DNA of 64,000 bases from a virus. Lineage: Duplodnaviria; Caudoviricetes. This document shows, in pieces, positions 2,122 through 64,000 of this stretch. The stretch covers positions 149,117-213,116 of IMG/VR virus record IMGVR_UViG_3300002895_000002; one strand, written 5' to 3'. Made by a program: the position numbers and the translations under genes. The notes under the pieces were generated by a model. That model saw nothing but the letters and a program-made list of their open reading frames with translations, was not told where the DNA came from and ran no database searches. How positions within the stretch are numbered: position 1 is the stretch's first letter; each line of letters begins with the position of its first letter.

Positions 2122-3028
2122 ATGTTTATAATAGAACCAAAAAAGACTAAGTCGAATAAAAAAGTAGCAGATTATACTAGGTGTGAGGTTTCCTGTGACA
2201 AATGTGGTAAAGAATATAATAGTAGCTATAAACAGGTTACTGATGGTAGACTAAAATATCAGGTTGATTTATGTCGAAGTTGTAGACAGATTTATCAATA
2301 TGAAAATGGAATTAGAGATAATCAAAGAGCTTCAATTAGTAAAAATGGAAAGGTAAGACGTATGAAGAAGTATTAGGGATTGAAGGTGCAAAAAAGCGAA
2401 AGAGAAATTGAAATCTTATACTGGCGAAAAATCATCAAATTGGGGTGGAACATGGCATGGCAGTAGAGAGAAAGCGGATCAACGAAATGCTAGTATAAAA
2501 GGTAAGACTATTATAGAGATATACGGTGAAGAGAAAGCAGAAACAATACGAAAAAAATTAGGTGTACCTGGCTCTCGAAATGGACAATTTGGAAAACCGG
2601 CACCTACAGGATCCGGGAATGGGTGGTCTGGATGGTATAAAGGGTTCTTTTTTCGGTCATTATTGGAATTATCTTTTTTGGTATCAATGATGAAACAAGG
2701 AAAACACATCATATCCGCAGAGAGTAAAGAATTTAGAACAGAATATACAGATTGGGAGGGAAAAAGAAGAAATTATTTTCCAGATTATGTAATTGACGGA
2801 ATTGTTTATGAAATCAAACCTAGTGGATTAGTGAATACTAAAACTAATAACCTAAAATTCAATGCTGCTAGAGAAAAATTTGGTACGGAAAGATTTATCA
2901 TTCTCACAGAAAATGATGTTGATAAAATATCCGATTCTACAATAAAATTCTTGTATGATAATAACGAAATAAAGTTTATTCAACGATATGAAGAAAAGTA
3001 TAAGGAGCGTTATGCCGAACTTTCTTGA
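2122..3028 (+). CDS. Free-standing homing endonuclease, PD-(D/E)xK TnsA-like; a single gene broken by two homopolymer indels
   Basis: ORFs 2122..2376 and 2408..3028 join through +A at the A5 run (2341) and the A6 run (2390). N-terminal CxxC pairs; C-terminal FRSLLE...YFPDYVIDGIVYEIKP. Close paralog at 59613. AT-rich. Confidence 0.8.
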
Positions 3029-4652
3029 TTTTTTTGAAAAGAACAAGATAAGTCCTAGAAGTCAGCAGTGTGAAGTATTATCCAAACTTGAATCAAATTG
3101 GGATAGATATGATAATTTCGTTATATCAGCCCCAACCGGTGTAGGGAAAAGCTTCATTGCTCTCGCCATTGCTATGGGCACCACAAACTCATTCCTTCTC
3201 ACCGGAACCAAATCCCTCCAAAGTCAGTACATCGAGACGTCGGATCAGCTCTACAACATCAAAGGACGGGCAAACTATCCCTGTGGTCTTAACCGGACCG
3301 TTCGTGCTGACATGGGGCCATGTTCCATCATGCCTCAGATCAAGCGAAAATGTTATGGGAATGGGTCCTGCATCTACCACAACGCAAAGCTTGGTGCGAA
3401 GAAGGCCAAGACTATGCTGACCAATTATGCTTACTTCCTGACAGCTCTCAATTCCGGGTCTTTTGGTGAGCCATATGAGTGTAAGCGAGCGGTGGTTCTA
3501 TGTGACGAAGCACATGACCTTGAGAAGTGTCTAATCAACTTCGCTGAATGTGTCATTTCACCATCTGATATCAATAAGAAGTTCCATATCCAAGATCCCG
3601 CGTGGAAGTTTGGAAACAGTGAGAAGAAAAATCTCGAGATCCTGTTTGATATCAAGGCTGAGATTGGGAAGGAGATGAACAAGTGTACCTCCCAAATCGA
3701 TCTTATCTACGCCAAGTATGGCATCACTTCGGAAGATACTTCCGGGATGTTCAAGATGAACGGAGCAGACACCGATAAGATTGCTAAGCTAGGCCTTAAG
3801 TTAGCTCAGCTTGATCGAACAATCAAACCCATCGACATCTATGAGGCAAACCAGTCGTTTCGGTGGATTATTGATGCAAACACTGATGACAATACCTTGA
3901 AAATATCTCCCATATCTGCCTCTGGTATTTTCTCTGAATACATGCAGCACTTTGGTGGAAAATTTGTATTCATGTCAGCCACCATTGGAGATCCGAATGT
4001 ATTCTGTCGGGAGCTTGGTCTAGACCCGGAGCGTACTGCCTTCATTCGAACCGGAACTGATTTCCCTGCGGAGAATGCTCCCATTGTTTTTTGTCCTGTT
4101 GGGAAAATGAATTACAAGGATCTTCCTGCTACCATGCCGAAGATTGTGGCAGGTGTGATTGAGATTCTCAAAGGTCATGCTGAAGATAAAGGGATCATAC
4201 ATACCGGGAATTACAAGATCTCTCAAGCCATCATTGACGGACTTCCAAGAGAGCTTAAATCCAGACTGATCCATCGAGACATGAAGTACGGACAGAAGAT
4301 CAGTAACGAGGACCTAGTCCGGATGCACACCCACGATAAAGGTCCGACTGTTCTCATCTCCCCATCGTTGGGAACTGGAACCTCCCTTGATGATGACCTT
4401 TCTCGGTTCCAGATCATTGTCAAGCTGCCATTTCCTTCACTGTTGGACGCAAGGGTAAAGATAAAAGCGGATGAGGATCCCGACTGGTACCTGGACACCA
4501 TGTGGCGTGAAGTTCAACAATCTTCGGGGCGATCCATTCGAAGCATGGAAGATCATGCTGTTACTTACGTTCTGGACAGTTCTACTGATTGGTTCTTCAA
4601 GAAAGCAGAAAAAGTTCTGCCTCCTCATTTCAAGGAAAGGTGGCACTGGTGA
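3012..4652 (+). CDS. SF2 DinG/XPD-like DNA helicase with Fe-S cysteine cluster
   Basis: APTGVGKS Walker A, KGRANYPC plus three further Cys, CDEAH, MSAT, and HELICc2-type motifs (QIIVKLPFP, QSSGRSIR); RBS AAGGAG before the ATG at 3012. Confidence 0.9.
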   Translation: MPNFLDFFEKNKISPRSQQCEVLSKLESNWDRYDNFVISAPTGVGKSFIALAIAMGTTNSFLLTGTKSLQSQYIETSDQLYNIKGRANYPCGLNRTVRADMGPCSIMPQIKRKCYGNGSCIYHNAKLGAKKAKTMLTNYAYFLTALNSGSFGEPYECKRAVVLCDEAHDLEKCLINFAECVISPSDINKKFHIQDPAWKFGNSEKKNLEILFDIKAEIGKEMNKCTSQIDLIYAKYGITSEDTSGMFKMNGADTDKIAKLGLKLAQLDRTIKPIDIYEANQSFRWIIDANTDDNTLKISPISASGIFSEYMQHFGGKFVFMSATIGDPNVFCRELGLDPERTAFIRTGTDFPAENAPIVFCPVGKMNYKDLPATMPKIVAGVIEILKGHAEDKGIIHTGNYKISQAIIDGLPRELKSRLIHRDMKYGQKISNEDLVRMHTHDKGPTVLISPSLGTGTSLDDDLSRFQIIVKLPFPSLLDARVKIKADEDPDWYLDTMWREVQQSSGRSIRSMEDHAVTYVLDSSTDWFFKKAEKVLPPHFKERWHW

Positions 4653-6160: not shown

Positions 6161-6879
6161 AAGACGAAGCACTGTTCAAGGAGAAGGTTGACGAGTTTGC
6201 TGTTCTACGTATCGAGCGAGGTGAGCAATCGTCCCGACTGAGTAAGACCGCCAAGCTGGCAAAGAACCTGATTGGGATGAAGGGGTCCGACTACAAGAAG
6301 ATCACCAACATCATCTATTCCACCACGCCGGCTGCAAAAGAGCGGGCTGACAAGAAGAACACCAGTAAGAAGAAGCCGCTCACCAAGCTGGAAAAAGCGG
6401 CTGAGCAATTTGCTGAGCTCTACTCCCAGCTCACTCTCCTAGGCGAGGGTAACCGACTTGAGCTGCTCATGGCCAACAAAGGTGTGAAGATCGAGGCCGC
6501 ATTCGAAGGTGCTCTCACCGACAAGTATGAGCTCCGCAAACCCAGTGAGAAGACCGAGGAGCTCTGGGAAGAGCTGATGGGTGGTGAAGAGATCCCCGCA
6601 ACAACCCAAGAAAGGGCCAAGTGTCTGATCAACGCCGGCCTGGTGTGTCTCAACGATGTTGCTGAGATCTCTGACAAGATGAACAAGGAGATTCTTGAAG
6701 AAGCGGCTGAGGACTGTGGTGTGATCAAGAAGCACCTTGTCAAAGCAGTTGGTCTCCGGGTCAAAGCAATCAAGAAAGGGGAGGATGTTATCCCTGAAGC
6801 AGTTGACGCAATCTCGTCGGACGCGGAACAACTCTGTGAAACCCTCTCGGCAATGATTCCGGGAGAGAAAGAAGAATAA
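6157..6879 (+). CDS. Hypothetical helical protein, possibly a DsbA-like dsDNA-binding protein
   Basis: Good RBS and phage codon usage; lies upstream of gp33 as dsbA does in T4; weak sequence resemblance only. Confidence 0.4.
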   Translation: MKDEALFKEKVDEFAVLRIERGEQSSRLSKTAKLAKNLIGMKGSDYKKITNIIYSTTPAAKERADKKNTSKKKPLTKLEKAAEQFAELYSQLTLLGEGNRLELLMANKGVKIEAAFEGALTDKYELRKPSEKTEELWEELMGGEEIPATTQERAKCLINAGLVCLNDVAEISDKMNKEILEEAAEDCGVIKKHLVKAVGLRVKAIKKGEDVIPEAVDAISSDAEQLCETLSAMIPGEKEE

Positions 6880-6882
6880 GCC

Positions 6883-7107
6883 ATGAACACCAAGGATGCA
6901 AAGCATCTGGACCTGCCGCAGCTCAAGTCACGTCTCCGCGGTACCGACTATGCACTCATCCGGTCAGTGGAAGACATCGTAGATGCACTCGTGAAAGCAG
7001 GGATCCTCAAAAGATCCCTGCTGCCCGAGGATGTCTGGGATATCATCGAGGAGCGCAAGGAACTCCGCACAAAGATCAGGGAGATTGTTGATGCCAAAAA
7101 TCCATGA
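6883..7107 (+). CDS. Hypothetical protein
   Basis: Coupled ORF with phage-like codon usage. Confidence 0.6.
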   Translation: MNTKDAKHLDLPQLKSRLRGTDYALIRSVEDIVDALVKAGILKRSLLPEDVWDIIEERKELRTKIREIVDAKNP

Positions 7108-7128
7108 ATAAAAAATGACATATTTCTG

Positions 7129-7163
7129 TGTGTATCTCATAAATACCTATGGAGGGATACACA
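7129..7163 (+). promoter_or_regulatory. RBS-sequestering hairpin containing late promoter CATAAATA (7138-7145)
   Basis: TGTGTATC (7129-7136) pairs with GATACACA (7156-7163), and the stem extends over the GGAGG RBS. Confidence 0.7.
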
Positions 7164-7843
7164 TGAAAAATAAAACTCATAAACACCACATCATACCAAA
7201 GCATTCCGGTGGAGGGGATGAACCAGAAAACCTTATTGAACTAACAGTAGAACAACATGCACTGGCACATCTAAAATTATTTGAACAGAATGGTAATCCT
7301 AAAGATTATTGTGCATATAAACTTCTTTCTGGCCAAGGAGACAAATTCTTTGAGACTGCATCGTTGGGTGGAAAAATACAAGGAGCAATAAACCGTGATT
7401 CTGGTCACATGAATAGAATTAGGTTATTGGTTGATGAAGAAAAAAGAATAGCCAATGCGAAAAAGACAATGTTTGAAAGAAGAAATAATTGTTTTCTCGA
7501 TCCAGAAAAAAGAAGAATATGTCAGTCAAAAGGTGGAACAATTGGTGGAAGAAAAAATGCTGCGAGCGGCCACCTAAAAAGAATATCCGTGGAATCAGCA
7601 AAAATAAGATCCGAAAAAATGAAAAATAGAATTCTGATCAACAATGGTAGTGAAACAAAAATGATACCTGAGAGTGATTTCGATCTCTATCCTGGATGGA
7701 ATAAAGGAAGACACACTGAAGGAAATAATAAGAATACAATATGGATCACAGACGGAAACAAAAGAAAAAGAATCAAAAAAGACACTGATATTCCCGAAGG
7801 CTGGTCTGCGTGCAAAGTTGACATTATGCAGGTTTCGTGTTAG
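7163..7843 (+). CDS. Free-standing HNH homing endonuclease
   Basis: HKHHIIPKHSGG..PENLIELTVEQHALAHLKL; C-terminal WITDG...PEGW repeat; AT-rich. Confidence 0.85.
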   Translation: MKNKTHKHHIIPKHSGGGDEPENLIELTVEQHALAHLKLFEQNGNPKDYCAYKLLSGQGDKFFETASLGGKIQGAINRDSGHMNRIRLLVDEEKRIANAKKTMFERRNNCFLDPEKRRICQSKGGTIGGRKNAASGHLKRISVESAKIRSEKMKNRILINNGSETKMIPESDFDLYPGWNKGRHTEGNNKNTIWITDGNKRKRIKKDTDIPEGWSACKVDIMQVSC

Positions 7844-7869
7844 AATGAAGTATTAGAAGGGAGATAGCA

Positions 7870-8088
7870 ATGAATGAATTAAACGATAACCAAATGGTTT
7901 TGTATCTCAAGAAGACTGGAATACCAGTCATTGTCGATCTAGGCGAGATTTCTGAGGACGGTGAGATACCCATCGAGATTCAACTGGAAGACAAACACAA
8001 ACACCTGCTGGATCAAGCCCTTACAGAAGTTCAGGAAGTAATTCAGCTGATGCTCAAAGAAATGGCGGAGGACCTTGAAAATGCTTGA
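7870..8088 (+). CDS. Hypothetical acidic protein
   Basis: GGGAG RBS; overlaps the next gene. Confidence 0.6.
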   Translation: MNELNDNQMVLYLKKTGIPVIVDLGEISEDGEIPIEIQLEDKHKHLLDQALTEVQEVIQLMLKEMAEDLENA

Positions 8089-8326
8089 CGGAATCTCCCT
8101 AAAGATCGAAGAGATGGCAAAAGAAAACGGTGGGAGTTACATGGAGGCAGTTCTGGATTTCCAGGAGCAACATGAGATTCCTGACGTGGAGGACATCACA
8201 GAAAACCTTCATAAGAACATCATCGAGAAGCTCAAGGAAGAGATCATCAGAAAGAACTTCCTGGGCAAAGACAGCAAGTTCTATCAGGAATCGAAAGCAA
8301 TCCCTTCCGAGTTTTTCGAGGACTAA
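8081..8326 (+). CDS. gp33: Late transcription co-activator, T4 gp33-like
   Basis: ISLKIEEMAKENGGSYMEAVLDFQEQHEI...IIEKLKEE pattern; position upstream of gp32. Confidence 0.75.
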   Translation: MLDGISLKIEEMAKENGGSYMEAVLDFQEQHEIPDVEDITENLHKNIIEKLKEEIIRKNFLGKDSKFYQESKAIPSEFFED

Positions 8327-8329
8327 TCC

Positions 8330-8575
8330 ATGCACATCAAACCAAACTCCGAACTGGCTATGAAGTGGGCTCACTTTGGTGGCTCCTTGGGTGGTAAGAT
8401 CATGGAGCTCAGACAAATGAACTACATCCTGTCGGGTGGAGTAGAAATCACTCCAGAAGGTCTTGAGAAACTCAAGAATCGGTTGGACCGGCTCAATCGA
8501 GAGCTCGTTATGCTCTGCAAAACCACCCCAGAAAAACTCAATGATCTAGTTGAACAAACGAAGGAGCACCTGTGA
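8330..8575 (+). CDS. Hypothetical protein
   Basis: Coupled ORF. Confidence 0.55.
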   Translation: MHIKPNSELAMKWAHFGGSLGGKIMELRQMNYILSGGVEITPEGLEKLKNRLDRLNRELVMLCKTTPEKLNDLVEQTKEHL

Positions 8576-57943: not shown

Positions 57944-58216
57944 ATGTCAAGCGAGAATGGCTCAACGGGGATATGTCATATTCCACCAGTTCGGTGGTTT
58001 CATACCACGGCAAAAGCAAACGACCCATATATGGACTTTGATGATGAGCCAACCGAGCAGTATGTGATGTGGCTTGAGATTGCCGACTGTAAAGACAAGG
58101 TCAAGCTTCACCGGGCATACAAAGACACACCTGAAGAGTTCATCGAGAAGATGAAGAAGCTTCGGATGCATATTGATGATTTCATAACATTCCTGGAGGA
58201 AGAACATGGCTACTAA
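57944..58216 (+). CDS. Hypothetical protein
   Basis: WLEIADCKDKVKLH motif; coupled. Confidence 0.55.
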   Translation: MSSENGSTGICHIPPVRWFHTTAKANDPYMDFDDEPTEQYVMWLEIADCKDKVKLHRAYKDTPEEFIEKMKKLRMHIDDFITFLEEEHGY

Positions 58217-59473
58217 GAAAGAGAACTTCAGCATCAAGATCCCAAGGATATGTGGAGAGTGGTCAAACCGTCAATGCGTGACGTGAATGAAGGTTATCCC
58301 CTGGCGTTCCTTACTCCCGACGGTACCGACAAGGCTGCTGAGAAAAGGAAAGAGACCGGTATTCACTGGGCTCTGGAACACAGCGAAAGTTATGACAAGG
58401 ACATCTCTGAAAGAACCGAATCATTCCCCAACCTACCGCGGGACGGCTTCCGGATAGCCAAGGCTGTCAAGCGGACCGGATGGAACGGCGGGAATGTCGT
58501 CTGGCGGATAGAGGACCCATACGGTTTCACGGTGGAAATCCAGTCAGGGAACCTCCAGAACATCCTGGAGAGCTGCACTGTAGATAAGGGTCTCATCTTC
58601 GGCAAGTGTGTATGGGCTCGTGACGGAGCTTCCAACATTCTGCTTCCGATGGACACCGAGGAATATCGGCAGGCCATACGGAACACCGAAAACCTCAAGG
58701 TGTCATTCAATCCGGATGATGTTCCGCTTGGCAGCACAGTGAAGCTCCGCAATGGCAAGAACATGATATGGCTCGGCCAGTTCTTCATCCATCAGCTGAG
58801 ACTCGACGAGATGATTCTTGACCCTGAGAATAATCACCAGGTGAGATATCTTGACCCGTTTGTCAAGTGCTCAGACAAGGCCAAGTTCTGCTTCTATGAT
58901 CCGAATGAAAAGTTTGAGTGGAGAGGAAAGACCCAGAACATCTATGCCTACTCCAAGTTCGACATCATCGAAGTGGTAGACACGTCATGCCTGATGACAG
59001 TGAACACCGTGATCGCCAACAAGATGCTCACCGACTGTCGTGTGTATACAGGGAAGGACCTTCTGTGGAACACCGTGGCACTTACCCGGTACAAGACCGA
59101 CCTGGAGTGGAGGTTCGAGACCGAGGAAGTTCCCAAAGACAAGTGGCCCGTGGTTGATCATGTTGCCAAAATCACCTCCAGAAAGATGATCGCCAAGTAT
59201 CAGTGGGTGTTCTATGAATATTCGTCTTTCACCTCCAGGTGGAGTCATATGGCATCCACCGTCAACTTCAACGAGCTCGAGGAGTTCTCTGATAAAAAGT
59301 TCAAAATCAAGAGAGTTCCCGTACAACAACGTGGCATCTATGCAAGAGAGCCGTACTTGCAGAAAGTGACATATAACCATTCCATGATTCCTGGTAATGA
59401 GTTCACCGGTCAGTTCTACTACCTAAACATCTTCTTTCCGCAGCTCAACATCACTGCACAGATATCCGAATAA
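58206..59473 (+). CDS. Conserved phage hypothetical protein, frameshifted at the C3 run 58241-58243
   Basis: GGAGG RBS plus ATG at 58206; WRIEDPYGFTVEI..GNL..IL...TV.KG.I.G.CVWAR. Confidence 0.7.
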
Positions 59474-59478
59474 AAATA

Positions 59479-59507
59479 TTGACACCAGCCAACCATGATG
59501 TTATAAT
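59479..59507 (+). promoter_or_regulatory. Consensus sigma70 promoter
   Basis: TTGACA-N17-TATAAT. Confidence 0.9.
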
Positions 59508-59517
59508 AGAAACATCA

Positions 59518-59580
59518 ATGGAGGAACGAATAAAGAAAGTGTACATGGGCATAGGCATTCCGGGAAGCGAATTTTTATGA
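59518..59580 (+). pseudogene. Orphaned original 5' end of the kinase gene
   Basis: Reads ...IKKVYMGIGIPGS then EFL*, matching MNKKIFISIGVPGSGKS at 60575. Confidence 0.75.
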
Positions 59581-59612
59581 AAAAATATAAATAGCTATGG
59601 AGGAATAAATCC

Positions 59613-60578
59613 ATGGCATGTATAAAGTGTAGAAGTGAAGAGAAATCAGGCAAACAAGGTGACCGGCGTTGTCCAAATTGTGGTTATCGCCCATCACCAT
59701 ATGAATGTAATATTGAAAAATATGGCAAAGAAGAAGCAGATAGATTATTAGAAATAACAAAAGAAAAAATGAGAAACAGAAAACCAACAATGAAAGGAAA
59801 AACAGTTTACCAATGTTGGTTAGAAAAATATGGCAAAGAAGAAGCAGATAGATTATTATCACAAATGAAAAACAAACAATCAGAAAGAAGACAAGGAGAA
59901 AATAACCCATTCTTTGGAAAAAAACAAGATAAAGAAAAATTAAAAAAAGCACAAGCAAATAGAAAAAAAGAATCATATCAAACCGAAGATTTCAAAAATA
60001 AATGCAAAAGACTCGGTTCATCAAATGGGATGTTTGGAAAAACAGTTTTAGAATGTATGGAAGCAAAATATGGTATAGAGGAAGCAAAAAAAAGATGGAC
60101 AGAACAAAATAAGAAAAAAGCAAGATATGGTTCAGATAACGGACAATTCGGAAAACCAGCGCCTATGGGATCCGGAAACGGTTGGTCTGGATGGTTTTCT
60201 GGTTTTTACTTTCGTTCATTGCTTGAATTGTCCTTTATTGTTCAAAGTATCAAAAATGGTATAGAAATAAAATCAGCTGAATCAAACGATTATCGAATCG
60301 AATATTATGATAAAAATGGTAAAAAAAGAAATTATTTTCCGGACTATGTAATAAATGACGTAATATACGAAATCAAACCATATTCATTATTGAATACGGG
60401 TGATAATAAACCAAAATTTGATGCGGCTAAAGAAAAATTTGGACCAGAAAAATTTATCATTCTTACTGAAAAAGAAATTGACAAACTACCCGATGATGTA
60501 ATAAAATTGATGTATATAAACGGCGAAATAAAATTTACCGAACGGTATAATAAAAAATTCAAAGAAAGATACTTGTGA
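59613..60578 (+). CDS. Free-standing homing endonuclease, PD-(D/E)xK TnsA-like
   Basis: YFRSLLE...NYFPDYVINDVIYEIKP; repeated LEKYGKEEA modules; late promoter TATAAATA at 59586-59593. Confidence 0.85.
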   Translation: MACIKCRSEEKSGKQGDRRCPNCGYRPSPYECNIEKYGKEEADRLLEITKEKMRNRKPTMKGKTVYQCWLEKYGKEEADRLLSQMKNKQSERRQGENNPFFGKKQDKEKLKKAQANRKKESYQTEDFKNKCKRLGSSNGMFGKTVLECMEAKYGIEEAKKRWTEQNKKKARYGSDNGQFGKPAPMGSGNGWSGWFSGFYFRSLLELSFIVQSIKNGIEIKSAESNDYRIEYYDKNGKKRNYFPDYVINDVIYEIKPYSLLNTGDNKPKFDAAKEKFGPEKFIILTEKEIDKLPDDVIKLMYINGEIKFTERYNKKFKERYL

Positions 60579-61039
60579 ATAAGAAAATTTTTATTTCTAT
60601 TGGTGTTCCGGGTTCAGGCAAGTCCACCGCTCTCGCTGAGATCTGTCGGAACCGCACATACCGCTACGTGTCTGCTGATGAGGTTCGCCTTCTCGTCAAC
60701 GGTTCAGTGGAGTCTCAGGCCAACCCCAGTAAGGTATGGGGTATCGTCTTCGAGCTCTTCACCAAGGCCCTCGAGGACCCGACCTGTGACACCATCGTGG
60801 TCGATAACACTAACATTACCTTCGACAACCGAAAGAAGTTCTATGACGTTGCCAAACTATATGCCAAGCAAGTAGAGTTCGTCCTGGTTTGGGTTGATGT
60901 TCCAGTTGAGGTTGCAATACGTCGGAATGCCGGCCGTAGCCGCAAGGTACCTGAGCACGTCATCCGTGGCATGGCAGAACGGCTCCAACCGCCTACCGTG
61001 GATGAGAGAAATGCTTTCGAGGTCATTGTGGTGAGATGA
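60575..61039 (+). CDS. P-loop polynucleotide kinase (AAA_33, PseT kinase-domain-like)
   Basis: IGVPGSGKST, VSADEVR, VVDNTN...RKKF, RRNAGR.RKVPE.VI. Confidence 0.85.
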   Translation: MNKKIFISIGVPGSGKSTALAEICRNRTYRYVSADEVRLLVNGSVESQANPSKVWGIVFELFTKALEDPTCDTIVVDNTNITFDNRKKFYDVAKLYAKQVEFVLVWVDVPVEVAIRRNAGRSRKVPEHVIRGMAERLQPPTVDERNAFEVIVVR

Positions 61040-61377
61040 GAGCAATCATCCCGAAGAAGAACTTCAGAGCACTATTCATAGAGGCAATCGAATACTGTGA
61101 CAGGTGCTGGATTGATATGTTGGACTGCAAGACGTCATGGCGGAGATTGCCGTCCGATAAGTCCATTGATGATGTACTGGAGATGTGCGAGAATGGCAAG
61201 CCGATTCTTACATGTATCTATCGAGTCGGACGGCTTGAAGGTGCGGAGGATTTCTATGAGTTCTGCGCATCCACCATGCGCGCTAACGAACCAGATTACT
61301 ACCTCTGGGTATTGGTAAAACCAGAATATGCCCGGAAGCTCAGCCTGAAGTATGGCTTGAAAATGAAGGAATACTGA
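61036..61377 (+). CDS. Hypothetical protein
   Basis: ATGA coupling to the previous gene. Confidence 0.6.
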   Translation: MRAIIPKKNFRALFIEAIEYCDRCWIDMLDCKTSWRRLPSDKSIDDVLEMCENGKPILTCIYRVGRLEGAEDFYEFCASTMRANEPDYYLWVLVKPEYARKLSLKYGLKMKEY

Positions 61378-61391
61378 TATATACGGAGACA

Positions 61392-61643
61392 ATGAAGATC
61401 ACCGAGGAAAAAGAGACCATCGTCCGTTATGTCACCGCTTACAAGTGCTCGGTCTGTAAGAAAGAGTACACTGACATCATGGAGCTCCAGGAGTTCTCCA
61501 CAATAGAGTTCGAGGGCGGGTATGCCTCGGTGTTCGGAGATGGTGCTGTCGGCCGCCTGGACATCTGCCAGCACTGCTTGAAGGAACGGTTGGGTGAGTT
61601 CGTGGAGTGGCAAGAGTACGACGAGAATGGAGATCCGGTATGA
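61392..61643 (+). CDS. Small zinc-finger protein
   Basis: CSVC...DICQHC. Confidence 0.6.
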   Translation: MKITEEKETIVRYVTAYKCSVCKKEYTDIMELQEFSTIEFEGGYASVFGDGAVGRLDICQHCLKERLGEFVEWQEYDENGDPV

Positions 61644-61921
61644 GCAAGATACTGACGATCACCGCCAGTGAAAAACGGTTCTATGAGCTGAAAGATGCTT
61701 TCAGGGGAATGGAGTGAATACTTTTCCAAGCCAAAGACCAAATTCCAACCATCGTGCAGAATGACAAGGAGGTGTCGACTGATGATCTGGTGGAGTTCAT
61801 CAATAATTACCAACAGACCCGGAATAAACTCAGGGATGAGTTTGAAGCCATGATGGCTGCACTCGACACATCGTACAAGCGGATCATCCTAGAGATCAAG
61901 AAGGAGAATGATATGCTATGA
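61640..61921 (+). pseudogene. Hypothetical gene interrupted by an in-frame TGA at 61715
   Basis: The same frame continues with phage codon usage to the stop at 61921. Confidence 0.4.
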
Positions 61922-62235
61922 TAATGTATGCAGTCACCACTATTGACATCAGGAATGGGAAGGCACCTACATCAGCATGTTGTTGCGTCGGGATTTTCAA
62001 GGATCTGGAAGATGCCGAAGACGTGGTCCTGAATAACAGGGCAGACATTGCTGAAGGCGAAACCAATGAGTTCGTCGTGATCGAGGAAGTGGAAGTCGGT
62101 ATGGTATACCCGCTCTGCATGACCCGCTATTGGTACAAGTATGATCCTGATCCGTCTAACGAAGACGAAGGTCTGTACTGGCGGACAGAAGAACCGGAGT
62201 GGGCAAGCGGGATCGTGAACTGGGGAATAGGGTAA
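61918..62235 (+). CDS. Hypothetical protein
   Basis: AAGGAG RBS; DIAEGETNEFVVIEEVEVG motif. Confidence 0.6.
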   Translation: MIMYAVTTIDIRNGKAPTSACCCVGIFKDLEDAEDVVLNNRADIAEGETNEFVVIEEVEVGMVYPLCMTRYWYKYDPDPSNEDEGLYWRTEEPEWASGIVNWGIG

Positions 62236-62245
62236 AGGAGACATC

Positions 62246-62492
62246 ATGGCAACCAAGCGTTTTTTGTGACTGCTGTGGAAGAGAAGTAGGGTTTCGGCAG
62301 TTCACTGAGTTCTCCATCAAGAAACACATCGATCAGATCGGTGTCAAGGAGATATTCGGTGGTTTTGTCGATAGTGCCGGCAACCCGGTGTCTGATGCAT
62401 CTGTTTCATATGACCTCTGTAATGCCTGCTATAATAGCGTAGCAATGGCTGCCATGGAAATATTCAAGGATCACATGCATGAGAATCACTGA
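62246..62492 (+). CDS. Small zinc-finger protein, frameshifted at the T6 run 62260-62265
   Basis: AAGGAG plus ATG at 62246; FCDCCG...DLCNAC. Confidence 0.5.
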
Positions 62493-62655
62493 GGAAACTC
62501 ACGAGATAATGGAGAAATATGGATGGACTATAATCCGTGGGTCTCCATTGGAAATCGAGCACCCCGATGGTTCTTTCGCGACGATGATGGTAGCAGAGGT
62601 GTTCATCAATGCAACAGTTGCCGCCGAGCTCAGAAAGAGGAAAAAGAAAAAATGA
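62479..62655 (+). CDS. Small hypothetical protein (58 aa)
   Basis: MRITEETHEIMEKYGW..SPLEIEHPDGSFAT; stop overlaps the ATG at 62652. Confidence 0.55.
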   Translation: MRITEETHEIMEKYGWTIIRGSPLEIEHPDGSFATMMVAEVFINATVAAELRKRKKKK

Positions 62656-62783
62656 GAAAATTAGCGAGTGTAAAAATAATCAAGGAACTCCTCCCCATCG
62701 AGGGAGCCGACCGAATCGAGGTAGCCAAACTCGAAGGCATCATGTGGCAGTGCGTGGGATTGAGGTGGTGTGTGAACATATGA
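62652..62783 (+). pseudogene. Orphaned original 5' end of the RNA ligase gene
   Basis: MRKLASVKIIKELLPIEGADRIEVAKLEGIMWQCV then an unrelated tail and stop; ATGA-coupled to the upstream gene. Confidence 0.85.
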
Positions 62784-62791
62784 CAAACTAT

Positions 62792-62829
62792 AGTTCTTTT
62801 ATAAATATAAAATAAATTATAAAGGAACT
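62792..62829 (+). promoter_or_regulatory. RBS-sequestering hairpin containing late promoter TATAAATA (62800-62807)
   Basis: AGTTCTTTTATAA / TTATAAAGGAACT, 13-bp stem covering AAAGGA. Confidence 0.75.
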
Positions 62830-62832
62830 GTC

Positions 62833-63612
62833 ATGAACTACCAGTCTATCTATGATCGGCTTATTGCCAAGTTCAAAGATCATCCAAAAGTCAAGTGTCA
62901 AACCAACGATCATCATATCATCCCAAAATGTTTCAAAAAGATTGATGACATCGAAGACATTGATGGACAATGGAACAGAGTGCATTTACCTCATCGTGAA
63001 CACTTCATTGCTCATTTGCTTCTTGCCCGTATATGGCGGGGACATAGAGCCAAAGGACCGATGATGGCGAAAGCATTCAACCGTATGTCTAACTGCGGAT
63101 GGTATACATCCAAAGATTATGAATGGATAAAGTCTTCATTAAATTATTCCCATTCTGAAGAAACCAAACAAAAACTTTCTGAAATCAACATTGGAAAGAA
63201 AATGTCAAAAGAATCATGTCAAAAAATGTCAGATTCAAGAAAAGGAAAACCAATACCCAAATTGGTAGGCAGAAAAAGTTCAGTTGAAAAGATACAAAAA
63301 CAAAAAGATTGGTATGCTTCATTATCAGATGATGAAAAACAAATAATGAATCAAAAAAAGAAAGATTGGTATAATTCATTATCTCAAGAAGAAAAACAGG
63401 TAATAAGTGAAAAGATAAGCAAGAGGAATAAACGTCCAAAAACAGAAAAGGAAAAACAGGCAACAAGAGAAGCAATAACAAAATATTGGGCCGAAAATAA
63501 ACACAAAGATCCTCGTGTTGGCAAACCTAGAAGCAAAGAAACTATTGAAAAAATAAAAGAAACAAAAAGGAGAAAACGACTTGAGAAAATTAGCGACAGT
63601 AAGAATAATTAA
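62833..63612 (+). CDS. HNH homing endonuclease (family member 4)
   Basis: DHHIIPK..WNRVHLPHREHFIAHLLLARIW, HSEETKQKLS. Confidence 0.9.
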   Translation: MNYQSIYDRLIAKFKDHPKVKCQTNDHHIIPKCFKKIDDIEDIDGQWNRVHLPHREHFIAHLLLARIWRGHRAKGPMMAKAFNRMSNCGWYTSKDYEWIKSSLNYSHSEETKQKLSEINIGKKMSKESCQKMSDSRKGKPIPKLVGRKSSVEKIQKQKDWYASLSDDEKQIMNQKKKDWYNSLSQEEKQVISEKISKRNKRPKTEKEKQATREAITKYWAENKHKDPRVGKPRSKETIEKIKETKRRKRLEKISDSKNN

Positions 63613-64000
63613 ATCAATAATTCCGATAGAAAATGCTGATAAAATAGAATTGATAGAATTGGAAGATATATTATGGAAAGTAGTATGTCAAAAAAATATC
63701 CATAAGGTCGGTGATAAGGTCATCTACTGCGAGATTGACAGCATTCTCCCAGCGGAACACTTCCCTGACCTGGAAAAGTGTAACTACCGCATCAAGACGA
63801 TGAGACTCAGAGGCTGCCTGAGCCAAGGCTTCATCATACCGCTGAATGTGGCTTTGGAGATCGCTCGGCAGAACCAGGCTGCCGTGTGTCTCGATACTGG
63901 TTCTGATTGGACTCATGCTCTCGGTATCACCAAGTACGAGCCACCTGTCAAGTTCACCATGGGAGATATGGCTGGACCGTTCCCGTCTCATCTCATCCCA
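63581..64000 (+). CDS. RNA ligase, DRB0094/Rnl2-like family, 3'-partial, with an AT-rich recoded N-terminus
   Basis: AGGAG plus TTG at 63581: MRKLATVRIIKSIIPIENADKIE...GDKVIYCEIDSILP...RIKTMRLRGCLSQG...LGITKYEPP. Confidence 0.85.
   Translation, partial: MRKLATVRIIKSIIPIENADKIELIELEDILWKVVCQKNIHKVGDKVIYCEIDSILPAEHFPDLEKCNYRIKTMRLRGCLSQGFIIPLNVALEIARQNQAAVCLDTGSDWTHALGITKYEPPVKFTMGDMAGPFPSHLIP

Follow-up and report, generated by a model that had tools for sequence, protein, structure and literature searches.

A probable homing endonuclease cassette at the Walker A codons of a phage kinase gene carries a replacement gene start

Three ways of persisting with essential genes are generally recognised for homing endonucleases: within introns or inteins, between genes, or, rarely, by splitting a gene into two working pieces. 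The closest precedent for the phage cassette described here is the group of endonuclease ORF 'gene hybrids' in fungal mitochondria, which involve atp6 in Allomyces macrogynus, atp6, atp9, cox2, and nad3 in Glomus, atp9 in Rhizopus, and cox2 in Mortierella (PMC3630166 and work cited there). In T4-type phages, free-standing homing endonucleases also split genes, as seen for mobE in Aeh1 nrdA, mobA in the T4 topoisomerase gene, and seg43(25) in gene 43 (PMC2988022). Fractured genes in environmental phage-like DNA are a further case: a free-standing nuclease gene separates the halves of a conserved gene, and split inteins reunite these halves by trans-splicing (Dassa et al., 2009; PMC2677866).

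Our analysis of a 64,000-nucleotide stretch of the genome of an uncultured T4-like phage, referred to as the window, identified a kinase gene that shares features with each of these systems. As in the fungal gene hybrids (PMC3630166), a conserved gene harbours an endonuclease ORF together with a diverged copy of the gene end that was displaced; this copy is foreign and continues in frame into the rest of the gene, and the native end persists beside it as a duplicated piece. It is this native piece that matches close relatives, whereas the inserted copy is divergent. One difference is that the fungal hybrids replace the 3' end of the gene, and thus the C-terminus, whereas the phage cassette replaces the 5' end and for that reason must supply a start codon and translation signals. 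In addition, the fungal elements encode LAGLIDADG or GIY-YIG enzymes in mitochondria, whereas here a PD-(D/E)xK/NUMOD3 nuclease is encoded in a T4-like phage with a T4-style late promoter and hairpin. The phage cassette works like the fungal gene-hybrid family but is not a member of it.

Like the T4-type cases, the locus has a free-standing nuclease gene within a part of a phage gene that is critical for function. Control of translation by a late promoter and hairpin is a putative further parallel, and a candidate promoter for the downstream gene is likewise embedded in the nuclease gene. In those cases, however, both pieces are functional and assemble as two polypeptides, whereas at this locus a cassette-borne copy takes the place of the upstream piece, which is discarded. 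Unlike the fractured genes, the locus contains no intein and has no parts that need rejoining. Our literature search revealed no account of a start-replacing cassette in phages, and the words duplication, truncation, and remnant are absent from the review of the T4-type elements (PMC2988022). The kinase locus would represent a fourth solution in phages, in which a spare gene start is brought in and the original is discarded yet kept as a homology arm. The features of the locus are as follows.

59479-59507, + strand: native sigma-70 promoter of the kinase, TTGACA-17-TATAAT, 12 of 12 consensus matches, the same in the empty-site allele L004
59518-59580, + strand: dead 5' stub ORF of the native kinase, with Shine-Dalgarno, lost start, native part, insert-derived codons, and stop
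59565-60612 (equivalently 59558-60605), + strand: inserted cassette of 1,048 bp, delimited by alignment to L004 and by composition
59586-59593, + strand: T4-type late promoter motif TATAAATA, with nine occurrences in the window versus 1.1 expected
59594-59601 pairing with 59610-59617, + strand: 8-bp hairpin stem directly 3' of the late motif, present in the minimum-free-energy and centroid folds
59613-60578, + strand: homing endonuclease gene, 321 aa, with a four-cysteine zinc ribbon, NUMOD3 repeats, and a C-terminal TnsA-like PD-(D/E)xK domain (residues about 187-308)
60478-60507, + strand: sigma-70-like promoter in the 3' end of the nuclease gene, TTGACA-18-TAAAAT, 11 of 12 matches, 68 bases 5' of the kinase restart
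60575-60612, + strand: cassette-borne kinase 5' end (MNKKIFISIGVPG), 38 bases, AT-rich like the nuclease gene
60575-61039, + strand: hybrid kinase gene, 154 aa, composed of 13 foreign first codons and the native body, with the Walker A motif GVPGSGKST intact

The consensus promoter, the stub, the nuclease ORF, and the GTG start of the kinase are located where an earlier sequence-only reading of this DNA had placed them. That reading had also taken the stub for the orthologue of the kinase N-terminus, and an alignment of orthologues bears this out. Six uninterrupted alleles from independent assemblies (P0002 and P0130-P0134), with 88-95% protein identity to the window kinase, all begin with MKKVYMGIGIPGSGKST, which the stub reproduces base for base up to 59564 apart from the start codon, and its DNA differs from that of contigs L094 and L095 at one of 35 bases. 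The 75 bases 5' of the stub, which carry the promoter and the Shine-Dalgarno, are the same as in L004. By these sequence comparisons, the resemblance of the stub to the kinase N-terminus is not due to chance.

The single mismatch falls in the native start codon (59530-59532), which is ATG in all six alleles that lack the nuclease gene and ATA in this genome only. This change could be neutral decay, with a chance of about 1 in 12 for the first hit. The native N-terminus was previously read as MEER from the ATG at 59518, but that codon overlaps the Shine-Dalgarno GGAGGA (59520-59525) and the native start is at 59530. The native part of the stub (ATTCCGGG) ends at 59564 and is followed by insert-derived codons and a stop at 59578-59580. 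The proposed break in the Walker A motif stands, whereas the S of 'PGS' and the terminal EFL*, which had been assigned to the stub, are insert-derived because the native sequence stops at 59564. The stub codons CCG GGA AGC were considered as donor-derived synonymous codons, and CCG was dropped as evidence since it is also native in L094 and L095.

Alignment to L004 defines the insertion precisely. Positions 59275-59557 of the window match L004 132-414 at 98.2%, and positions 60606-60852 match L004 415-661 at 96%, placing both junctions in the Walker A codons. The seven bases TTCCGGG are present at both junctions (59558-59564 and 60606-60612), so that the exact crossover point is ambiguous within them. 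Together with the six uninterrupted alleles, these junctions establish an empty-site polymorphism at one precise site, and the alleles provide a clean before/after comparison. The cassette comprises a short linker with stop codons, the late promoter motif and hairpin, the nuclease gene, and the foreign 38-base kinase start. Its GC content is 0.21-0.33, versus about 0.5-0.6 in the flanks, and the AT-rich island extends over exactly the nuclease gene and the new kinase start. No GenBank phage sequence matched 58250-61400 in a Megablast search.

The kinase restart begins at GTG 60575, shares bases with the nuclease stop (GTGA), and joins the native kinase body in frame inside the Walker A codons. 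It yields a complete AAA_33 kinase (82 bits versus a cut-off of 27). The protein also matches T4 Pnk (1ltq, E 2e-7) and PSTK (1e-8), and is a predicted kinase-only polynucleotide-kinase-like protein without a phosphatase domain. The native body is 91-95% identical to that of the alleles without the nuclease gene. A tblastn search of phage DNA with the kinase returned only relatives below 35% identity, and a related-locus search of viral contigs with the kinase and with the helicase found nothing.

The sequence-only reading had described this restart as a recoded duplicate start. A second start is indeed present, but it is a diverged homologue and not a synonymous recoding: six of 12 aligned residues agree with the native start, as do 24 of 35 bases, and the new start is longer by one codon. 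Its codons ATT GGT GTT CCG GG are the same as those in a 60%-identical kinase in L005. By these comparisons, the new start is best read as a foreign homologous replacement that travels with the cassette. Because the restart is without a good Shine-Dalgarno, kinase output may be low or lost.

The nuclease has 511 homologues, of which the best is 41% identical; no donor and no second carrier lineage of the exact cassette is known, since even this closest homologue is so distant. A tblastn search of phage DNA with the nuclease gave one partial match. Its NUMOD3 score (21.7 bits) is over the Pfam cut-off, and residues C3, C6, C20, and C23 of the zinc ribbon as well as D244, E253, and K255 are invariant across the family. 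Conserved catalytic residues are combined with sequence-tolerant DNA-binding modules, as expected for the homing endonuclease class. The predicted model (pLDDT 84) agrees with the earlier description of a TnsA-like homing endonuclease. In particular, the best structural match of its C-terminal domain is TnsA (1t0f/1f1z), with Z 8.0 and rmsd 3.1-3.4 Å over 117-119 residues after VIA re-alignment, while Foldseek E-values against the PDB are weak (TnsA, 0.078). The score for PF08722 (Tn7 TnsA-like endonuclease, N-terminal domain) is 17.7 bits (E 0.0055), under the curated cut-off of 26.5, and many homologues carry a precomputed PF08722 label. Because this score is under the cut-off while the homologue labels and the fold agree, we call the nuclease TnsA-like by predicted fold and do not count it as a curated PF08722 member. 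The fold is common to TnsA, the PD-(D/E)xK subunit of the Tn7 transposase, but unlike Tn7 there is no TnsB, TnsC, or other transposon partner and there are no transposon ends at the cassette, and unlike TnsA the DNA-binding modules are of the homing endonuclease type (zinc ribbon, NUMOD3). A paralogous nuclease at 2122-3028 is split into two ORFs.

The regulatory signals of the cassette resemble the late promoter/hairpin design reviewed for I-TevI, segB, and mobE (PMC2988022). In the predicted fold, the hairpin covers part of the nuclease Shine-Dalgarno (GGAGG, 59599-59603) and the AUG. An important caveat is that the region overall folds no better than its shuffles (z -1.4), so that only the local 8-bp stem is notable. 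The promoter at 60478-60507 is a candidate cassette-borne promoter for the kinase by its sequence, and in the T4 seg/mob genes, promoters embedded in this way are known to serve the genes that follow (PMC2988022).

Based on these observations, we consider it very probable that the Walker A codons of the kinase gene were the entry point of a free-standing homing endonuclease cassette and that the gene was repaired by the cassette's own 5' gene end, not by splicing. In the proposed mechanism, the nuclease would cut uninterrupted alleles at or beside TTCCGGG/TTCAGGCAAG, and this predicted cleavage site in the Walker A codons is a concrete experimental target. The carrier genome would be immune because the site is divided, with just the left half in the stub and just the right half in the restart; in the restart, six of the 12 bases immediately 5' of the junction differ from the native sequence. 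During co-infection, homology would be provided by the stub on the left and by the kinase body on the right, and the whole cassette would therefore be copied into the break. The arrangement may have originated when a break in the P-loop codons was repaired from a diverged donor with a nuclease gene just 5' of its own kinase, the right side through homology at the conserved P-loop codons and the left side through illegitimate joining or very short homology. The nuclease would be translated from late transcripts only. The kinase promoter now lies 5' of the stub and cassette, and translation from GTG 60575 would depend on coupling to nuclease termination, the embedded promoter at 60478-60507, or both.

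P-loop codons are a common location for introns and inteins. This, and the retention of a promoter and Shine-Dalgarno by the stub, could point to a group I/II intron or intein whose splicing restores the kinase from stub and body, making the GTG start irrelevant. Such a scenario is barely credible for this locus, in which neither a ribozyme core nor an in-frame Hint domain joining exteins is found. An Rfam search of 59000-64000 matched no family even at E up to 1, and thus no group I or II intron model. The stub is without an ATG and reaches a stop after five foreign codons; stub, nuclease, and kinase occupy three different frames; and the downstream ORF already contains a complete beta1 strand and P-loop, so that splicing would duplicate the P-loop. 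Likewise highly improbable, if marginally less so, is a purely local origin of the second start, in which the native 5' end was tandemly duplicated and the copies later diverged, with the nuclease between them and nothing imported. The TTCCGGG at both junctions does resemble a short duplication, but the stub is one of 35 bases off the six native alleles, versus 11 of 35 plus one codon for the restart, and this divergence is too unequal for copies of the same age. The restart also has the composition of the nuclease gene and not that of the phage, and the restart in L027 (GC 0.64) has the lower GC of a cassette as well.

The record is a metagenome-assembled virus genome and the junctions share only seven bases, which raises the question of whether a chimeric assembly put the nuclease gene of another phage into the kinase at a short repeat. 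We regard this as extremely improbable: assemblers work with k-mers far longer than a 7-base repeat, the sequences at the right junction are fused exactly in frame so that a full-length kinase results, and the hybrid kinase and nuclease are each found on two contigs of the collection. The same architecture is present in about ten independently assembled contigs, and the corresponding architecture in the ligase gene (see below) is present in both this genome and L094. A further alternative accepts the structure as described but considers it a decaying scar, with an inactive or domesticated nuclease and a kinase that is poorly expressed or non-functional. We find this unlikely, though less so than the other alternatives. 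The GTG restart has a weak Shine-Dalgarno, decay does occur in this genome, as seen for the broken nuclease paralogue, and the cassette is present in only one of seven sampled alleles. However, the nuclease ORF is unbroken, retains all residues that are invariant in the family, and gives a confident model; the kinase body has no stops, its Walker A motif is intact, and its identity to the alleles without the nuclease gene remains high; and the regulatory motif and hairpin are preserved. Invasion by a start-replacing homing endonuclease cassette accordingly remains our preferred explanation, and a sister case is found 3 kb downstream of the kinase.

62652-63700, + strand: RNA ligase gene with cassette; L004 and L095 carry the ligase uninterrupted
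62652-62783, + strand: RNA ligase stub
62800-62807, + strand: late motif TATAAATA of the ligase cassette
62833-63612, + strand: HNH/NUMOD3 nuclease gene of the ligase cassette
From TTG 63581, + strand: AT-rich replacement start of the ligase

Both RNA-repair genes of the phage, kinase and ligase, have thus been invaded by start-replacing cassettes. The ligase cassette is 95.7% identical to its counterpart in L094, versus 65-75% for the flanks. A tblastn search of the 213-kb genome for more stub/restart pairs recovered the kinase pair only (E 0.27); being too insensitive for stubs of 10-15 residues, it is no evidence that other pairs are absent. Short 'hypothetical' ORFs annotated 5' of nuclease genes may be dead gene starts, and chimeric 5' ends are a potential source of error in phylogenies and pangenome clustering.

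The start-replacing design with homologous nucleases is found in at least nine other phage contigs (L006, L010, L015, L022/L024, L027, L029, L046, L061, and L092), and by sequence, start replacement recurs in the nuclease family and is not unique to the kinase gene. Most of the outside stubs end after the second glycine of GxxxxGK[ST], before K[ST], and the genes downstream of the family nucleases belong to the AAA_33, AAA_28, and AAA_3/5 families. The stub in the window scores 47 against a null maximum of 48, where the null itself contains other P-loop stubs; because this maximum reaches the window score, several weaker outside cases rest on visual inspection. Among 45 genes directly 3' of family nucleases, 13 have a Walker A motif within their first 60 residues, versus none of 135 control ORFs (Fisher p 3e-9). 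In L012/L014, L020, L033, L039, L050, L052, and L089, a family nuclease lies directly 5' of a P-loop gene and no stub was seen.

A plausible but somewhat doubtful extension of these results is that the zinc-ribbon/NUMOD3/PD-(D/E)xK family is a Walker A specialist, for which the GxxxxGK[ST] codons provide both the cleavage site and the right recombination joint. A generic 'beta-strand plus P-loop' start patch would then allow hops between non-orthologous P-loop genes, such as polynucleotide kinases, AAA_28 and AAA_3/5 ATPases, and helicases. If this is the case, the abandoned stub ends mark the cleavage position, and decay of the stub leaves a seemingly ordinary free-standing nuclease gene just 5' of its target, which would be a general route for placing free-standing homing endonucleases beside the genes that they cut. 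Whether DNA that encodes a conserved motif enables a single nuclease family to spread into unrelated genes is a testable question. In a quick tree, labels are clustered, with 13 changes versus 16.8 in shuffles, and none of 200 shuffles is as low. The family nuclease in L008 is intergenic and stands without a kinase.

The kinase locus is a real, well-documented case of a homing endonuclease cassette that replaces the start of its target gene. It lies in the final 64 kb (the window) of a 213,116-bp IMG/VR virus record that is rated complete and for which a nucleotide search found no close relative among GenBank phages. Reading the sequence from 59300 to 61700 together with the ORF listing, we found every element named in the sequence-only reading (promoter, stub, nuclease ORF and a kinase from GTG 60575):

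59479-59507: sigma-70 promoter, TTGACA-17-TATAAT, 12/12 matches
59518-59580: short stub ORF, C-terminal end ...KKVYMGIGIPGSEFL*
59613-60578: nuclease ORF, 321 aa
from GTG 60575: kinase ORF, 154 aa, the GTG overlapping the TGA of the preceding ORF

GC content falls from about 0.5-0.6 to 0.21-0.33 between ~59550 and 60610, and recovers exactly where the kinase sequence turns native. Pfam identifies the 154-aa protein as a P-loop kinase of the AAA_33 family (82 bits). It lacks a phosphatase domain, and its nearest relatives of solved structure are PSTK and T4 polynucleotide kinase (kinase domain).

The insertion is seen directly by comparison with relatives that lack the cassette. A protein search returned P0002, a 153-aa kinase 88% identical to that of the window, and P0003 (60%), and five further proteins (P0130-P0134) cluster with the window's kinase at 90%. 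All six close relatives share the N-terminus MKKVYMGIGIPGSGKST, one of them being called from an upstream ATG as MEERMKKVY... The gene is uninterrupted in the viral contigs L004, L094, L095 and L096, behind the same promoter as in the window, and also in L005, which encodes P0003 and in which the promoter-like sequence upstream has diverged. Aligned to L004, the left flank (window 59275-59557, L004 132-414) is 98.2% identical and the right flank (window 60606-60852, L004 415-661) 96%. The stub follows L094 and L095 codon by codon through ATT CCG GG (59564), the sole difference lying in the native start codon at 59530, where ATG has become ATA; the old 5' end has been kept, without a start codon. 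ATG 59518, previously taken as the start of the stub, instead falls on the Shine-Dalgarno sequence GGAGGA. Beyond 59564 the stub reads into the insert (A AGC GAA TTT TTA TGA). The restart, the replacement start of the kinase, reads GTG AAT AAG AAA ATT TTT ATT TCT ATT GGT GTT CCG GG and is thereafter identical to L004. TTCCGGG thus stands at both junctions, and the insert measures 1,048 bp.

Two further differences from L004 were seen. L004 (1-180, against window 57944-59473) lacks ~1.2 kb: ORF 57944-58216 is joined midway, at a shared GAGGAGTTC, to the final ~60 codons of the 407-aa ORF 58250-59473, through either a true deletion or a collapse in assembly. On the other side, immediately past the cassette, a mosaic patch at 60864-61378 (kinase 3' end and the next gene, 61036-61377) is just 82% identical to L004, with 96-98% on both flanks, and is possibly a co-conversion or recombination boundary.

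The foreign start is in frame with a kinase whose remainder shares 91-95% identity with the HEG-less alleles. It matches the native start at 24/35 bases and 6/12 residues and is one codon longer. Its ATT GGT GTT CCG GG has the codons of P0003 in L005, a match that fits derivation from a diverged homologous kinase. No strong Shine-Dalgarno sequence is present at the restart, and the GTGA overlap suggests that its translation is coupled to nuclease termination.

An intron or intein is ruled out. No Rfam family matched within 59000-64000, even with the E limit relaxed to 1; stub, nuclease and kinase lie in three different frames, with a stop closing the stub; and the downstream kinase ORF already encodes the full beta1 strand and P-loop. 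Of the systems described, the fungal mitochondrial endonuclease 'gene hybrid' comes nearest to this cassette: a mobile ORF supplies its target gene with a foreign C-terminal end, and the native end stays behind (PMC3630166), whereas the cassette in the window replaces the gene start. Nuclease-split genes are described in a review of the T4 family, but no stubs or duplicated ends (PMC2988022), and fractured genes rely on split inteins (PMC2677866). We found no report of a start-replacing cassette in a phage in the literature searched.

In the nuclease, Pfam detects NUMOD3 above threshold and a TnsA-like N-terminal match below it. The family is large (511 matches at E below 1e-5, the best only 41% identical), and four N-terminal cysteines, D244, E253 and K255 are invariant in a 26-sequence alignment. 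The AlphaFold model (pLDDT 84) best matches TnsA (Z 8.0, rmsd 3.1-3.4 Å, 117-119 residues), two Z units over other PD-(D/E)xK folds, that of the homing endonuclease I-Bth0305I among them.

The window contains nine copies of the T4 late-promoter motif TATAAATA (1.1 expected). One copy, at 59586-59593, directly precedes a predicted 8-bp stem (59594-59601 with 59610-59617) that covers part of the nuclease Shine-Dalgarno sequence and AUG. We infer late-promoter and hairpin control: a late transcript would start a few bases past the motif, without the 5' arm of the stem, and the nuclease would be translated only late. The layout is that reviewed for I-TevI, I-TevII, I-TevIII, segB and Aeh1 mobE (PMC2988022). 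Within the nuclease gene, TTGACA-18-TAAAAT (60478-60507) lies 68 bases ahead of the kinase restart; embedded promoters serving downstream genes are known for seg/mob genes (PMC2988022).

What is added here is a repeated link between this nuclease family and Walker A codons. Around four homologues, and at 80 viral loci retrieved with the family alignment, we looked upstream of the nuclease for a peptide resembling the N-terminus of the downstream gene. The arrangement recurs, with clear stub/restart pairs at L027, L061, L046, L022/L024, L015, L006, L010, L092 and L029. In most of these pairs the stub runs to the second glycine of GxxxxG, immediately ahead of K[ST], and most have a stop only a few codons later. 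The top six non-redundant stubs score 110, 77, 58, 55, 47 and 44, against a cross-locus null with a 99th percentile of 37 and a maximum of 48. The downstream genes encode AAA_33 kinases (some with fused HD or RNA-ligase domains), AAA_28 proteins and one AAA_3/5 ATPase. Walker A lies within the first 60 residues in 13/45 directly downstream genes versus 0/135 other same-strand ORFs of the same loci (Fisher p 3e-9). Several family members at the scanned loci precede P-loop genes without a visible stub, as at L020, where the downstream gene is a T4-Pnk-like kinase-phosphatase. Target classes cluster in a quick nuclease tree, in which close nucleases also sit at different P-loop families: AAA_33 (L061), AAA_28 (L010) and a helicase-like gene (L048).

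In the model that we propose, the nuclease would cut the Walker A codons of empty alleles, and a carrier would be immune because each copy retains only half of the site. Homing would use the stub as left arm. The cassette may have originated through repair from a diverged donor having the nuclease gene upstream of its own kinase.

At L029 (2360-4150) and L092 (2357-3779) the restart is minimal. The restarted ORF of L029 opens directly with the P-loop (VTGSGKST), and the whole native N-terminus is in the stub (...VMRGIPGS*); the restarted kinase may lack the first beta strand or be expressed in another way. In another clade of the family (L026, L028, L044, L047, L053, L055, L070, L076, L086, L091), the genes just downstream start with motifs that resemble those of 5'-3' exonuclease/FEN-type proteins (L..DG.N) and C5 DNA methyltransferases (LF.G.G). 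What the family targets in general may thus be the codons of conserved N-terminal motifs.

The same layout is found 3 kb downstream of the kinase, at the RNA ligase gene:

62652-62783: ligase stub
62800-62807: TATAAATA
62833-63612: HNH/NUMOD3 nuclease
from TTG 63581: AT-rich ligase restart

The ligase is uninterrupted in L004 and L095. Between the window (62652-63839) and L094 (6430-7585) the cassette shows 95.7% identity across 1,083 bases, versus only 65-75% for stubs and flanks, which indicates that it moves as a unit. The stubs differ in the codon at which they end (35 vs 25), and the left end of the window's cassette still contains 14 bases (62758-62771) that are the fossil of an older stub's end, which suggests nested stubs and a left junction made at least once by non-homologous joining. 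The kinase site of L094 is empty though its ligase is invaded, so among relatives the cassettes assort independently. The L094 ligase gene in fact carries two interruptions (6442-8462): the HNH/NUMOD3 cassette and, downstream of that, a GIY-YIG nuclease gene (7673-8413).

A paralogue of the kinase nuclease (55% identical), preceded by TATAAATA at 2095 and now split between ORFs 2122-2376 and 2408-3028, lies immediately ahead of a DinG/Rad3-like helicase gene (2988-4652). No stub was seen. The first ~150 bases of the helicase gene are AT-rich up to Walker A (G53-K54), with GC 0.35 vs 0.51 after, and its product shares 79% identity overall with P0136, the nearest relative, but ~66% over the first 41 residues.
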